64,000 nt of DNA, from the NCBI GenBank assembly GCA_951406725.2, contig OX597819.1, forward strand, positions 116,870,001 to 116,934,000, in the 5' to 3' direction. The position numbers and the translations under genes were made by a program. How positions within the stretch are numbered: the stretch's first letter is position 1; each line of letters opens with the position of its first letter. Source of the stretch: Octopus vulgaris. Its lineage: Eukaryota. Under the pieces are notes generated by a model. The model was not told the origin of the DNA and did not search any database. It worked only from the letters and a program-made list of their open reading frames with translations. Positions 3,971-63,110 of this stretch are shown here, in pieces.

Positions 3971-4013
3971 TCTGCATTGATAAGGGGCAAATACCCTGAA
4001 ACTAGTCTGCAGA
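3971..4013 (+). ncRNA. Minimal type I hammerhead ribozyme with U3-A8 core variant
   Basis: tctgca-TTGATAA-gggg(caaata)ccct-GAAAC-ta-GTC-tgcaga. Stem I is a perfect 6 bp and is extended by 3955-3968 pairing with 4015-4027. Predicted cleavage after C4007. Confidence 0.8.
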
Positions 4014-23271: not shown

Positions 23272-24530
23272 ATGTATGTGTATATGTATGTGTGTGTGTG
23301 TGAGAGTGTGAGTGCATGTGCTTGTGTGTGTATGTATTTAAATACACACACACTGACACACACACATATATATGTTGTGAAGATGGGGTCAAAATACAAG
23401 CTGTGTCTCTGAAAGCAGATTTTCTTATTGCAGTATTCCAAATCCGTAAATAGACCTTACATTTCTGTGAGGTAAGCATGTGTGTGGAAAATTCGAGTAG
23501 ATACTTCCTTCAGAGAAATTATATATCAAATGATATCAAATAATTTCATTCACTGTCTGAGGAATTTCCATTATGAGTTATCTTACATGTTCCGCCTATG
23601 TGTATAATTTAGTAACTCATATTAGTAAATGAAACATATATATGTATATGTGTGTATGTGCGTATGTATATACATATCCATGTATGTGATTATATATGTA
23701 TGTTTGTTTGTATATATGTCTTTACGTATGTCTGTGCCTGTATATACATATACGATCGTGTGTCTGTGTGTGTGCATGCATGGATCTACATATATGTGTG
23801 TATGCATGTACACGCACACGCATATAGATATTGCATGATTATGTGTGTGTGTGTGTGTGTGAAGTAATGGTGTGCACGAGTGAGTGTGTATATGTGTGCG
23901 TGTGTGTGTGTATGTGTGCGTTTCCATGATTATCTATGTGTAACACATTCTTGCGTATGTATGCGTACGTAGATGTGTTTGTATGTATATGTATACCCAC
24001 ATATATGTATATATCTATATATAATAATCATTTGAGGGAATATTAATCCTAACTTACAGGGAAAAAATTCAATTTAGAAATACTTAATCAAATTTCACAC
24101 AATATAATATATATATATATATGTATTCCCCCTTTTAGTAGAAGGAATAGCTATATCTCTTTGACTGCTATTTCTAAATTCGGTGTGTTGGTGAGGCAAT
24201 TCGTTGCTAAACCCTTAATTACTTAGTATTACTTAAATTTTCCTCGAATGGGGCTTTTACATGCCGAAATCTACTTGGTGTAATTGATAATTATCCCTAA
24301 TTAATTAATTTCACCCTTTATTATTACTGATAACCATATTTTATCCCAGTAAATGACCGCAGCATTTTGTCTTGGCTACACGCGGGTGGAAGGGGGCTGG
24401 TGACACAAACTTTCATTCAAACTTTGAATTTCGTGGTACTGGTAATGCTTTGGCTCGCTCTGACACTGAGTTGAGATGATGCATTCTAGTATCTCAAAAT
24501 TTAATATACAATTATTCATAATTGTAGTAT

Positions 24531-24622
24531 CCTGCGCCGATGAGAGAAGAAGTTTGGGTAAAGTAGAATTTTCTAATTCTTATGCTATCCTAAAACTTGA
24601 TCTCGAAACGTACGTCCGTAGG
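24531..24622 (+). ncRNA. Type I hammerhead ribozyme, tandem unit 1
   Basis: cctgcg-CCGATGA-gaga[long hairpin]tctc-GAAAC-gtac-GTC-cgtagg, with a palindromic stem III/loop (acgtacgt). Predicted cleavage after 24616. Confidence 0.85.
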
Positions 24623-25118
24623 TAACTTAAAATTGCATGATAGATTGCCGTCATTTCATTCTTTCTTTCTTACCTGTCTGTGTTTGCCTTTCAAGTGCTG
24701 TGTTTTTACTGAGATCCCCCTTTTAGTAGAAGGAATAGCTATATCTCTTTGACTGCTATTTCTAAATTCGGTGTGTTGGTGAGGCAATTCGTTGCTAAAC
24801 CCTTAATTACTTAGTATTACTTAAATTTTCCTCGAATGGGGCTTTTACATGCCGAAATCTACTTGGTGTAATTGATAATTATCCCTAATTAATTAATTTC
24901 ACCCTTTATTATTACTGATAACCATATTTTATCCCAGTAAATGACCGCAGCATTTTGTCTTGGCTACACGCGGGTGGAAGGGGGCTGGTGACACAAACTT
25001 TCATTCAAACTTTGAATTTCGTGGTACTGGTCATGCTTTGGCTCGCTCTGACACTGAGTTGAGATGATGCATTCTAGTATCTCAAAATTTAATATACAAT
25101 TATTCATAATTGTCGTAT

Positions 25119-25210
25119 CCTGCGCCGATGAGAGAAGAAGTTTGGGTAAAGTAGAATTTTCTAATTCTTATGCTATCCTAAAACTTGATCTCGAAACGTA
25201 CGTCCGTAGG
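25119..25210 (+). ncRNA. Type I hammerhead ribozyme, tandem unit 2
   Basis: Same motif 588 nt downstream; predicted cleavage after 25204. Confidence 0.85.
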
Positions 25211-25401
25211 TAACTTAAAATTGCATGATAGATTGCCGTCATTTCATTCTTTCTTTCTTACCTGTCTGTGTTTGCCTTTCAAGTGCTGTGTTTTTACTGA
25301 GATCCCCCTTTTAGTAGAAGGAATAGCTATATCTCTTTGACTGCTATTTCTAAATTCGGTGTGTTGGTGAGGCAATTCGTTGCTAAACCCTTAATTACTT
25401 A

Positions 25402-25443
<42 letters not shown>

Positions 25444-25484
25444 CGGAGATGTACTCGCAATTCGTTGTGCTGAAACTAAACCCT

Positions 25485-25579
25485 TAAAGCCATTTAAGAA
25501 ACACACAAAGCCGTACTTATTTTCGTCGCTAAAATCCGCGACCTGTTCACTGACAAAGTCCGTGCTGCATCTAAGAAAG

Positions 25580-25610
<31 letters not shown>

Positions 25611-26185
25611 GTGTGTATGTATGTACGTATTCATATATATATGTATGTATGTATATATGTATGTGTGTGTATAAGCACGCACATACACTCTATAAAACAT
25701 AAAGTTATAAACCTGTAGCGATGGATGGATGTAGAGTGACCACTCATCACAACGCTATCAAATTTCAAATTTCAAGTTGAAATTTGATAGCGTTGTGATG
25801 AGTGGTCACTCTACATCCATCCATCGCTACAGGTTTATAACTTTATGTTTTATAGAGTGTATGTGCGTGCTTATACACACACATACATATATACATACAT
25901 ACATACATACATACATACATGCATACACAGGCGTATGTGCGGACATGAATACGTACATACATACACACATGTATGCATACATACACACATACATACGTAC
26001 ATACATATATATGACGAACTAACTGTTACTTTCTTAGATGCAGCACGGACTTTGTCAGTGAACAGGTCGCGGATTTTAGCGACGAAAATATTTTGACAAA
26101 TTAAACTTAAATGTTGGAGTGAATCGAACGGCTTTTTTGTGTGTTTCTTAAATGGCTTATAAACACCTCCCACGCTGCAATTGTA
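25485..26185. repeat. Large fold-back palindrome of a PLE-tail-like repeat, centred at 25769-25776
   Basis: ~25630-25768 is the reverse complement of 25777-~25900, and 25518-25580 is the reverse complement of 26027-26090. Confidence 0.9.
26051..26100 (+). ncRNA. Minimal hammerhead with G3-C8 core variant
   Basis: tttgtca-GTGAACA-g-gtcgc(ggatttta)gcgac-GAAAA-ta-TTT-tgacaaa: perfect 7-bp stem I, 5-bp stem II and palindromic aaaatatttt. Confidence 0.7.
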
Positions 26186-26197
26186 TATATATATATT

Positions 26198-26232
<35 letters not shown>

Positions 26233-34009: not shown

Positions 34010-34720
34010 AGAAGTAAATTCCACTTCACCCCTACACGGGAAAGGACAAATATTTAGATGCGTATATAGACACCATTTCAAAGTTCCCCCTACATATCCA
34101 CAGATGCAAACGAAACCTTCGCGAAGTCTTACAAACATTGAAGAATGACAACTCAATCATCTTAAAAGAAGCCGATAAGGGAGGGGCGATGGTAATCATG
34201 GACAAGGGCTATTATAAAGATAAAATATTGGAAATGTTAACAATCCAAACCAACTGCAACCAAGACACTCAGAAAAAACAATAATGAATTGAATCAGAAG
34301 ACTAATCAATGAATTCCAAGATTCCTTTACAGACAAGGAGAAATATATATGCAACTCTTTAATCAAAGAGAGCAATTTATATGGATTACCCCAAATCCAC
34401 AAAAGCTCCGAAATGCAAAGAGCCATAAATAAGCAGAAGAACCTGTACGTAAAAATACTAAAACCTGCTGACCTCGAAGTAAGACTAATAGTTCCTGGAC
34501 CTCAAGCACCAACACAACATCTAAGTCATCTCTTTAGTTACACCCCTAAAAGATTTGTGTCCTTTAATACCCAGTTATGTACGGGATGGCAAAGATTTTA
34601 TCAAACACATCACTACCAATTTCGCAGAAGGTACTATACTTACAGGTTTTGATGTCACCAATCTCTATACTAATATACCTCACTCTTTATATGAGCATCT
34701 ATGGATAACAGGTGAAGTTC
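34010..34720 (+). mobile_element. Penelope-like RT N-terminal fragment, frameshifted
   Basis: IILKEADKGGAMVIMDK, LYGLPQIHK, RLIVPGPQAPT, IPSYVRD and FDVTNLYTNIPH are PLE RT motifs. Confidence 0.9.
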
Positions 34721-47845: not shown

Positions 47846-47883
<38 letters not shown>

Positions 47884-47889
47884 TATATA

Positions 47890-48517
47890 TCAATAATAAA
47901 GGGTGTGAAATCAATTAATTAATTTAGAAATAATCATTAATTTCATCAAGTAGAGTTCGGCATGTAAAAGATCCATTCAAGGAAGGTTTAAGTAATACTA
48001 ATTAATTAAGGGTTCAGCAACGATTTGCATCACCACACAGCGAATTTAGAAATAGCAGTCAAAATGTTTTGGCTATTCTTTCTACTTAAAAGGGAGATCT
48101 CAGTAAAACCAAAGCACTTAAAAAACAAACAACGCAGGCAAAAGAGAAAGAAATGACGAAAATCATTCTATATTAAGTTACCTACGGACGCACGTTTAGG
48201 AATTAAGTCATAGCAGAGCATAAAAATTAAATAATTATGTCTTACCTGACTATTTTCCTCCTCAGCGAAGGACTCTTCAATTATAAATAATTGCGTCTCA
48301 ATTATTAATAATTGTGTATTAAATTTGAAGGCACTAGAAGACATCACCTCAACTCATGGTATCAGAGAGAGCGTAATTCTTGCCAGTACAGCCAAATTCA
48401 AAGGGTGAATGGAAGTAAGACACCTTCCCCTTCCGCCAGCGTTAATACACAATTATTAATAATTGAGACGCAATTATTTATAATTGAAGAGTTCTACGCT
48501 GAGGATGAAAATAGTCA

Positions 48518-59984: not shown

Positions 59985-61479
59985 ATTTGTTGTGCAAGAT
60001 TTTTTATGTGAAGTCGTGTGTTGAAACAGATATTGTTATATTTCGGAATGGTCATATTGCCAGTTTAACCAATAAAAACACACGCACTATATATTTGGTG
60101 TTATTTTGCTTCAGTGATATTTATTTTTTACATTAATCTTAATCTTATTTCGGCCAAAGTTCTTTCGTCACACTCCTGTGACCGCATCAGTGGTCCTTTG
60201 TTTTCTTCTCACTTACTTGTGTCTCTCCTTACTGACCGTCAGCCATTTTGTATTTCTATTGTATGTCTTCATTTGCGCATGCTTATATCTCTATGTGCGT
60301 CTATGTTTATTTAGTGTGTGTGGGGGGGGGATGCCTGTAATATTTGTATCTTCTGGTTATATACATTCTTGTAATTTGTATTTTGTTTTTGTTGTTGTTG
60401 CTTTTGTTCTAATTTTATTCATGTGTTTACATCCACCCATTATTATCATTACATATGCTTGTATGTATGTATAACAACAATACTAGTAATAATAATAATA
60501 AATCTAATCGAGAAAAAAAAAAAAAAGAATATACATATACATATATATACATATACATACACATACATATACATATATATATATATATACATATATACAC
60601 ACATATATACACATATACATATACATATATATACACATATACATATATATAGATATTCATTTCTATTTCTTTAATTACCTGTGTATTTATTATGTTTGCA
60701 GGATCCACTATTGTCATATGTTGTGGTGTGCGCTATTGCTCCATTCTAGTTTTCTATTCAGGCTAGGTTTATTTTCTATTATATGTGTAGCTTCTGTAAT
60801 TTGTCTAATTGTTGCATCTGTTCTATGTGTGGACAATATCTTAATCTCTATGTTATTGATTGATCCCCCGTGTTCTTGTTCGGCGTGTTGGTACAGAATC
60901 GATGAGCTTTTACCTTCCTTGAGTTGTCTCCAATGTTCATTCACCCGCTCACCAATGCTTCTTGCAGTTTCCCCTACGTATGTTACTGTCTTGTTACTTT
61001 TTCTCGATTAGATTTATTATTATTATTACTAGTATTGTTGTTATACATACATACAAGCATATGTAATGATAATAATGGGTGGATGTAAACACATCAATAA
61101 AATTAGAACAAAAGCAACAACAACAAAAACAAAATACAAATTACAAGAATGTATATAACCAGAAGATACAAATATTACAGGCATCCCCCCCCCCCACACA
61201 CACTAAATAAACATAGACGCACATAGAGATATAAGCATGCGCAAATGAAGACATACAATAGAAATACAAAATGGCTGACGGTTAGTAAGGAGAGACACAA
61301 GTAAGTGAGAAGAAAACAAAGGACCACTGATGCGGTCACAGGAGTGTGACGAAAGAACTTTGGCCGAAATAAGATTAAGATTAATGTAAAAAATAAATAT
61401 CACTGAAGCAAAATAACACCAAATATATAGTGCGTGTGTTTTTATTGGCTAAACTGGCAATATGACCATTCCGAAATAT

Positions 61480-61486
<7 letters not shown>
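59985..61486 (-). mobile_element. 5'-truncated Penelope element: GIY-YIG C-terminus, 3' UTR/pLTR, and an inverted pLTR copy
   Basis: Minus strand [17 protein letters not shown]...[15 protein letters not shown] (60714-60985). 60030-60515 is the reverse complement of 60998-61486. Confidence 0.92.
61321..61365 (+). ncRNA. Hammerhead-like motif with A9C core (also 60152-60196 and 761-805 on the minus strand)
   Basis: ggacca-CTGATGC-g-gtcaca(ggag)tgtgac-GAAAG-aa-CTT-tggcc. Confidence 0.6.
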
Positions 61487-61518
<32 letters not shown>

Positions 61519-62232: not shown

Positions 62233-63110
62233 AGGGAAGACAACTCTTTGGAGTTCTTCAATTTGTGTTTCTCAAACTCCCCAAATTCTATATATTCCCC
62301 TTCTACCAATGTAAAGACGGGATCACCACACAGGAGAGAATTAACAAGGAGAATCTCGCTATTGAAAAATTCCAAACACAACTTAATATGCAAACTCCTT
62401 GTTGATCAAACTTCCTTTTTCTACCTCATTCTTCATGGATGGACTAACATAAATATATAAGGATACCATGCATTCATCACTTCAAGCTAAAACTTATATT
62501 CTTTAAATATCATTTTTACTAATGTTGTTATTACTATCATTTTTATTATATATGATATAACAATCTGAAATGTAATTGTCTATGCAAATTTATATAATTA
62601 GAAAATAATATAAATAAAGTGTTAAAATCTGAAAGTTAAGTTAACAAAAAATTATATAAAAAAGATAATGCAATTGAAGCTAAAATGATAACTTTATAAT
62701 TTGCGGTTTATTAGCAGCCTTTATTGCAGGGGATTTTGAGAAACACAGATTGAAGAACTCAAAAAAGTTGTCTCCCCTTATTCACAACACAGGAACTGAA
62801 GAACCACAATTACTACTACTTCCTGTTTTGCCAACATCCTTAATTAAACCAAACAACACATGGTCTTAATCCCAGTGGATCCTAATACTTCAAGGTAATT
62901 TTTTCGTGAACAATTATTAAACTCAAGATACACAACGAACTCACAATGTATCGGAGTACTTATTTTTAAATTTTTGTACATATTTATTATTATTCTTTTG
63001 CAAAAAACAATGCAACTTTCTTTTTTCCCCTTTCTCATTTTTAAAAAACTTTTTTACCTAACTATTCTTGATAAGTCACATTATGACGAAAACCGGTTTG
63101 AATAAATATA
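62233..63110 (+). mobile_element. Penelope 3' fragment with a short inverted 5' segment
   Basis: [33 protein letters not shown] (~62289-62387) is a PLE endonuclease C-terminus. 62233-62283 is the reverse complement of 62729-62779. The element ends with a hammerhead just before TA-rich sequence. Confidence 0.8.
63063..63104 (+). ncRNA. Minimal hammerhead with U3-A8 core and UUU triplet
   Basis: tattc-TTGATAA-gtca(catta)tgac-GAAAA-ccgg-TTT-gaata, with palindromic aaaccggttt. Confidence 0.75.

Follow-up and report, generated by a model that had tools for sequence, protein, structure and literature searches.

A non-coding unit of 588 bp, repeated head to tail in the genome of Octopus vulgaris and dispersed over most of its large contigs, carries a type I hammerhead ribozyme (HHR) motif in each repeat. 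The reading that we favour, and hold to be probable, is that this family is a non-autonomous non-LTR retrozyme, inserted into (TA)n tracts from a predicted RNA circle by a protein of the Penelope-like element (PLE) type, with reverse transcriptase (RT) and GIY-YIG domains, acting in trans. The copy described here lies in a window of 64,000 nucleotides, the whole stretch of DNA that was analysed, on contig C6; the genome-wide work covered 2.8 Gb in 227 contigs. A first-pass annotation of the window had already assigned the array to the animal non-LTR retrozymes, with a type I HHR capable of acting as a dimer, and this assignment is supported by the tandem non-coding units and by the HHR that each of them holds.

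The array and its family

Within the array 588 is the sole real period: 686 of 688 positions match at an offset of 588 and 100 of 100 at 1176, the next best offset reaching 37%, and overlapping unit copies differ at two sites only (24444/25032 and 24526/25114). Tandem Repeats Finder did not report the array because its period limit is 500. Positions in the unit are counted from the first base after the predicted HHR cut (u1 = 24617), which places u588 at 25204. The first-pass annotation had described a 588-bp tandem that starts and ends in mid-unit between (TA)n tracts, and it was correct in this, the array being one base longer on the left and two on the right than it had given (Table 1). Any target-site duplication of this copy is masked by the TA tracts at both flanks, and no LTR layout was seen at the mapped insertion ends of family copies. 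The GC content of the unit is 36.8%. The claim that the array holds no open reading frame of 60 aa or more stands for frames that begin with ATG (at most 49 aa on the plus and 47 aa on the minus strand), while the minus strand also holds one frame of 67 aa when frames are read from stop to stop. The unit had also been called long for an animal retrozyme, which is true against a range of 150-450 bp (PMC7229834) but not against one of 51-972 bp (bioRxiv 10.64898/2026.07.22.740005). A scan for bacterial promoters, irrelevant to this DNA, stayed at chance level.

Table 1. Features of the array in the window (u, position in the 588-bp unit).
Feature	Positions	Strand	Remarks
Left TA-rich target remnant, short	24102..24126	.	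At the truncated 5' junction
Single-armed insertion, 2.18 head-to-tail 588-bp units	24127..25405	+	5' end u99, 3' end u201
Type I hammerhead 1 (predicted)	24531..24622	+	Predicted cut after C24616
Predicted 588-nt monomer	24617..25204	+	Between the two predicted cut sites
Near 3'-end zone, u197-212, putative RT start 1	24813..24828	+	87/165 ends; zone shown in unit 2
Far 3'-end zone, u293-316, putative RT start 2	24909..24932	+	60/165 ends
Type I hammerhead 2 (predicted)	25119..25210	+	Same letters as hammerhead 1 throughout; predicted cut after C25204
Right (TA)19.5 target tract	25403..25441	.	First TAT common with the element's 3' end (microhomology u199-201)

Directly to the right of the array, at 25470-26200, lies a different element with inverted arms. 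At its junction (25457-25487) we found a gapped 23-nt match to u168-190, with a score of 34 against 27 for the best of 500 shuffles, perhaps filler copied from the neighbouring array.

A DNA search returned at least 196 family matches (40 of 2020 candidates scored); the full-length ones are 98-100% identical, and among the scored matches arrays reach about ten units. Exact counts over the whole genome gave 269 occurrences of u1-20, 252 of a longer pattern spanning the cut site and 1575 of u178-203, together with 800 intact HHR motifs of the family; controls with reversed patterns gave 0. Older branches, at about 90%, 78% and 67-70% identity, hold the same non-coding unit, and searches with two of them returned only further non-coding units. 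In every copy long enough, u588 is followed by u1 with no open reading frame between them, in three branches down to 67% identity, and no PLE open reading frame was found inside any unit of the fetched copies. The outcomes that the first-pass annotation had set against its own reading, such as a single unit or a unit that is always the pLTR of a coding Penelope, did not occur as far as they were put to the test: the unit is present in many copies throughout the genome, and none of these was found to be the pLTR of a coding element. The window itself holds an older, decayed family copy at 47879-48442 (minus strand; 67-81% identity), which ends on TA at about u311 and has one HHR, of core CUGAGGA, in which GAAA is damaged.

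Our literature search found no report of the 588-bp family or of any cephalopod retrozyme; Repbase and Dfam lie outside that search and may list it as an unclassified or Penelope repeat. The word 'ribozyme' is absent from the available text of an octopus repeat-annotation paper (PMC13282606). What is new is the family as such, its ribozyme with U4C and a long stem II, the start zones that we mapped and, described below, a rule for the pairing of ends.

The hammerhead ribozyme

In hammerhead 1, stem I is formed by 24531-24536 (CCUGCG) and 24617-24622 (CGUAGG), the core CCGAUGA with its U4C change occupies 24537-24543, and stem II extends over 61 nt (24544-24604); GAAA (24605-24608) leads into the palindromic stem III ACGUACGU (24608-24615), and the GUC cut site ends at 24616. 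The three helices follow one another in type I order, and every core position is canonical (C3 G5 A6 N7 G8 A9/G12 A13 A14/A15.1-U16.1/H17) except for U4C in the youngest branch, where it is fixed (190 units, 3 substitutions). Across 190-202 young units the catalytic core hardly varies. Older branches mostly have a canonical CUGANGA core, and U4C is also present in single older copies (L223, L275 and L305).

Covariation across three branches is seen in all three stems. In alignments whose rows are mutually related, so that their shuffle counts are no probabilities, paired cells amount to 97.9% (32 HHRs) and 99.5%, against 13-42% in slid controls; stem II has compensatory changes at two basal pairs and one outer pair, the palindrome centre over 32 HHRs is UA in 14, CG in 11, UG in 5 and other in 2, and stem I is altered on both sides at two pairs once the third branch is added (14 rows). 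Since the stems covary among relatives, the hammerhead is not a chance resemblance. The annotation had predicted one HHR per unit with a U4C core, an extended stem II and a stem III that is palindromic, all of which we recovered; the term minimal, which it had used for adjacent HHRs, does not hold for this ribozyme, because a 2-bp stem III with a palindromic loop is retained. The 588-nt length that it gave for a released monomer follows from the two predicted cut sites (24616 and 25204). The predicted fold of this monomer has a free energy of -159.7 kcal/mol (z = -6.0), reached by 0 of 100 shuffles.

The natural occurrence of U4C in a viroid is documented: its activity in vitro is considerably lower, and infectivity is still supported (PMC3088659). 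A search of the window with Rfam gave 0 matches at the gathering score, and hammerhead families were absent from the 12 weak matches (E up to 10). A long stem II and U4C point out a class of ribozyme that Rfam misses; hammerheads with a long stem II may be frequent in this genome and escape Rfam. Further HHR-like motifs, with a stem II of about 40-60 nt and a palindromic or near-palindromic stem III, were noticed at L034, L038, L039, L070 and L073; the one at L034 appears to be part of the pLTR of a coding PLE.

Insertion ends and the pairing of arms

Insertion ends were mapped in 104 insertions, a non-random sample drawn from DNA-search and pattern matches, with one duplicate locus and arms below 76% identity left out of the end map. 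The outer 3' ends (n = 165) fall mainly into a near and a far zone (Table 1), with 7 more at u240-279 and 11 elsewhere; altogether 154 of them lie 197-316 nt after the HHR cut, and 153 are joined to TA repeats. The window copy uses the near zone for its own 3' end, at 25405. The interval of about 100 nt between the two zones is the equivalent of the PLE 'tail'. Microhomology alone cannot explain the zones, because only 9 of the 24 TAT/ATA sites of the unit lie within u197-316. The 5' ends are truncated or inverted and scattered (n = 163; chi-square against uniform, p = 0.016), with mild clusters at u42-53 and u372-398, near two TCATTC motifs. These motifs (24656-24661 and 25002-25007), which we take to resemble an initiator, may act as internal promoters or as sites of pausing.

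In 61 insertions there are two arms that diverge from a junction of their 5' ends. Leaving out 10 that have an end outside the zones, 49 of 51 have one end in each zone (p = 6e-13). A replicate set of 44 loci, scored more loosely and with wider zones, gave 14 of 14 (3 left out), so that near and far ends are paired in 63 of 65 two-armed insertions over both sets. The first-pass annotation had taken the permuted array of more than two units as what rolling reverse transcription of a circle would leave, and had proposed mapping the starts and ends of copies for circular permutation. Random permutation is not what the mapped copies display, since their ends mark two fixed internal starts. The 3' ends are fixed, a trait shared with PLEs, and an identical array would be left by a tandem transcript that had not been cut, so permutation is no evidence of rolling reverse transcription.

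The end map also bears on whether the family could be a satellite-like repeat amplified at the DNA level, its hammerhead a dead relic. The U4C core, the lack of an Rfam match and signs of exchange inside long arrays would suit such a repeat, but the polar ends already contradict it, and it would also have to account for dispersal over most large contigs, TA targeting and 5' inversions, as well as for a core that is nearly invariant in young units and for stems that covary; we regard it as very improbable.

Coding Penelope-like elements and the putative partner protein

A GIY-YIG search, with 148 of 6136 candidates listed, was used to sample the coding PLEs of the genome. Sixteen of the listed candidates have open frames of 781 aa, which hold an RT domain, a C-x4-C-x2-C linker and a GIY-YIG domain. 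This family has two end sites, 40 nt apart on TA, which account for 39 of the 41 ends listed (the list counts two loci twice), and one end of each kind occurs in 4 of 4 two-armed copies. A second coding family, of 784 aa, is very young, with copies up to 100% identical; its ends likewise lie about 40 nt apart on TA and are paired in 11 of 11 two-armed copies. The near-plus-far rule is therefore obeyed in 15 of 15 two-armed copies of the two families, which are probably both of the Neptune type, judged solely by the linker as described in PMC8557442. Tail, inverted 5' copy and microsatellite bias have all been described for PLEs (PMC8557442), and an anole PLE initiates internally at two sites, on both strands, in vitro (PMC11167929). 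The octopus unit follows the end rules of the coding PLEs of this genome, and given these parallels PLE-type target priming is very likely the route of insertion. Points against the favoured reading are the length of the tail, about 40 nt in both coding families examined and about 100 nt in the unit, and the lack of DNA similarity between the unit and either family.

Two young Neptune-type families (L061-L076, L322-L327 and, immediately before the window, L240:2032-6636) have an upstream open reading frame of about 470 aa that overlaps the RT-GIY-YIG frame, and their pLTRs contain small HHR-like motifs with the core UUGAUAA (U3-A8 type). Other PLE-related sequences occur around and in the window: a PLE copy with a long pLTR-ORF-pLTR span 3-8 kb before its start; small HHR-like motifs with a UUGAUAA core and a palindromic stem III at 3977-4007 and 63068-63099 (both on the plus strand), the latter matching the pLTR region of a PLE in L219; a decayed PLE RT fragment at 34018-34689 (plus strand); and a long inverted-repeat structure at 60030-61487 with a weak GIY-YIG match at 60717-61007.

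The first-pass annotation had suggested looking for a linked autonomous PLE. Among 50 GIY-YIG loci and 20 full-length Neptune-type loci, which sample part of the PLE complement, no coding partner sharing DNA with the unit was found; the single family matches at sampled PLE loci are an ordinary family fragment (L038) and L315. The unit itself is not an autonomous PLE, as it has no open reading frame for RT and GIY-YIG. Could it then be the pLTR or 5' region of an undiscovered coding PLE, with the arrays as truncated partial tandems of that element? We think this quite improbable. All its end features are those of PLE pLTRs, and the GIY-YIG listing covers only the fraction of candidates given above; yet in copies long enough u588 always runs into u1, and at the PLE open reading frame fragments inspected near family copies the PLE's own 3' UTR or a TA tract intervenes. 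The closest approach is at L259:68-1749 (minus strand, contig C1, about 155.326 Mb), where a canonical-core family copy with its end at u201 is followed, after 4 nt, by a 5'-truncated open reading frame of the 784-aa Neptune-type family, on the same strand. The frame is joined at about residue 325, a point at which 20 of 20 other fetched loci of that coding family continue with their own sequence, and both parts are young (99.7% and 100% identical to their nearest copies). L259 is therefore not a pLTR but a nested insertion or a template-switch chimera, and it is the best lead to the partner element.

A circular or a linear template

In the retrozyme reading favoured here, a locus with two HHRs, like the window array, would be transcribed, and the HHRs would cut slowly, as a dimer formed through the ACGUACGU palindrome and weakened by U4C. 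Cutting would release the 588-nt monomer, which a host ligase would close into a circle. A PLE protein would nick both strands of a TA tract, and cDNA synthesis would begin inside the unit, at roughly u201 for one strand and roughly u300 for the other. Copying would proceed back across the ligated HHR site until each cDNA falls off, which would give arms of more than one unit, and the arms would then be joined at their 5' ends.

The points in favour of a circle are indirect. Crossing of the cut site is the rule, with 252 of the 269 u1-20 matches continuing through it. The 201 crossings contain one indel and, in two loci, four substitutions at u1, and no ligation scars were seen; canonical-core branches cross the site as well. 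As expected after a monomer bottleneck, variants that define subfamilies or are private to an insertion are as a rule carried by every unit of both arms. Three of the 163 5' ends lie exactly at u1, against 0.28 expected, and five other positions also hold 3-4 ends; L012 repeats pieces of u3-31, as if the enzyme had reached the end of a template. Some variants are present in only part of the units of long arrays (L231, L233, L099 and L161), and in L231 and L233 they recur with a period of three units, which reflects either block duplication after insertion or a trimeric template. Unit-specific variants of this kind point to later exchange or to multimer templates, and a single monomer circle does not explain them. 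Array length was rejected as a proof of rolling copying because long arrays share unit-specific variants.

The same PLE-driven, non-autonomous element could also be copied from an uncut, linear read-through transcript of a tandem source, with no circle. The HHR would then only free 5' ends from host transcripts, or cut rarely, and unequal exchange would maintain the long arrays. We see this as possible but distinctly less probable. It draws on the only PLE that has been reconstituted, that of the anole, for which uncut RNA is the main substrate in vitro and HHR mutants insert normally (PMC11167929). Against a circle stand also the lowered activity of U4C in vitro (PMC3088659) and the cleavage in vitro of only one of nine dimers of Xenopus retrozymes (bioRxiv 10.64898/2026.07.22.740005). 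The recurrence of unit-specific variants inside long arrays also fits a linear template, as does the clustering of some 5' ends near the TCATTC motifs, whose likeness to an initiator is presumed. Most copies, however, are shorter than one unit or have one HHR, and a lineage copied only from linear RNA would be expected to grow shorter. Units and arms mostly share one haplotype, and compensatory changes have preserved the ribozyme across about 30% divergence.

The lengths of arms can be read both ways. At intact-motif loci on contig C1 and the first 59.5 Mb of C2, 10 of 25 U4C arms cross at least two HHRs, against 5 of 46 canonical arms (p = 0.006), and among the youngest copies, with a neighbour at least 98% identical, the figures are 10 of 22 and 4 of 26 (p = 0.03); this effect is confounded by lineage, because the U4C arms are largely from one branch. 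The excess favours a linear template, but it is also expected if a circle were re-cut less often, and it fits slower cutting under either model. In Logan contigs of six public runs, guessed to be RNA with none recorded as such, the unit is covered in every bin for five runs and in 28 of 29 bins for the sixth; the unit junction is crossed, as it would be in tandem DNA too. An intron, considered on account of AG/GT just after the cut, left no splice joint in the contigs of eight runs, a result without weight as these are contigs only, and no A-to-G editing excess was seen in private variants (A>G 12, T>C 38). Taking these points together, we judge a circular template to be about twice as probable as a linear one.

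A more tentative proposal, which we offer as a conjecture that may well be wrong, is that the youngest lineage weakened its own ribozyme through U4C, so that the template survives longer, arrays lengthen and the latest burst followed. The PLE RT would act in vivo as an asymmetric dimer, making a single start at each of two fixed sites of a rolling circle, with the two starts serving opposite strands of the target, and the partner would read RNA shape and not shared sequence.

Relation to known elements and significance

Judged by its sequence, the family has the defining properties of an animal non-LTR retrozyme. It resembles those of coral, mussel and axolotl (PMC7229834; bioRxiv 10.64898/2026.07.22.740005) in its non-coding head-to-tail repeats with one type I HHR per unit, a weak palindromic helix III, a GC content below 50%, a highly structured monomer and coexisting PLEs, and differs from them in the 61-nt stem II and in U4C being fixed in the youngest branch. 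Circular RNA has been shown for the coral, mussel and axolotl families and is a prediction for the octopus family. With Neptune-type PLEs and the anole Poseidon element PAc (PMC8557442; PMC11167929) it has in common two internal starts downstream of the HHR, a tail at one end only, 5' truncation, an inverted 5' arm and AT-rich or (TA)n targets; unlike them, it has no open reading frame and a tail of about 100 nt in place of 30-40 nt, and its HHR is of full size and not of the minimal PLE type. It is also similar to non-autonomous Chlamys elements such as MRC1, which are non-coding PLE derivatives with multicopy head-to-tail insertions, although at their 3' ends the non-autonomous Chlamys elements generally resemble an autonomous partner, and a canonical HHR is described as lacking from most Chlamys elements (PMC8557442).

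It has already been proposed that retrozymes derive from PLEs or are moved by them, and that circles made by HHRs could yield copies of more than one unit (PMC7229834; PMC4209133; PMC7761336; bioRxiv 10.64898/2026.07.22.740005). The mover of animal retrozymes, and whether the circle is its template, have been stated to be open questions (PMC7229834; PMC7761336; bioRxiv 10.64898/2026.07.22.740005). Whereas the retrozyme papers argue from co-occurrence and pLTR similarity, the ends of the octopus insertions point directly to PLE-type priming, and the family gives direct genomic footprints, in the form of mapped start sites, of PLE-type priming on a retrozyme. The near-plus-far rule quantifies the known 'tail at one end only' and narrows the possible mechanisms of PLEs. 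The same genome also offers hundreds of family copies at 97-100% identity, intact proteins of two candidate partners, and ribozymes that exist naturally in a canonical and a U4C form; together with the footprints they make the choice between a circular and a linear template testable in one in vitro system.
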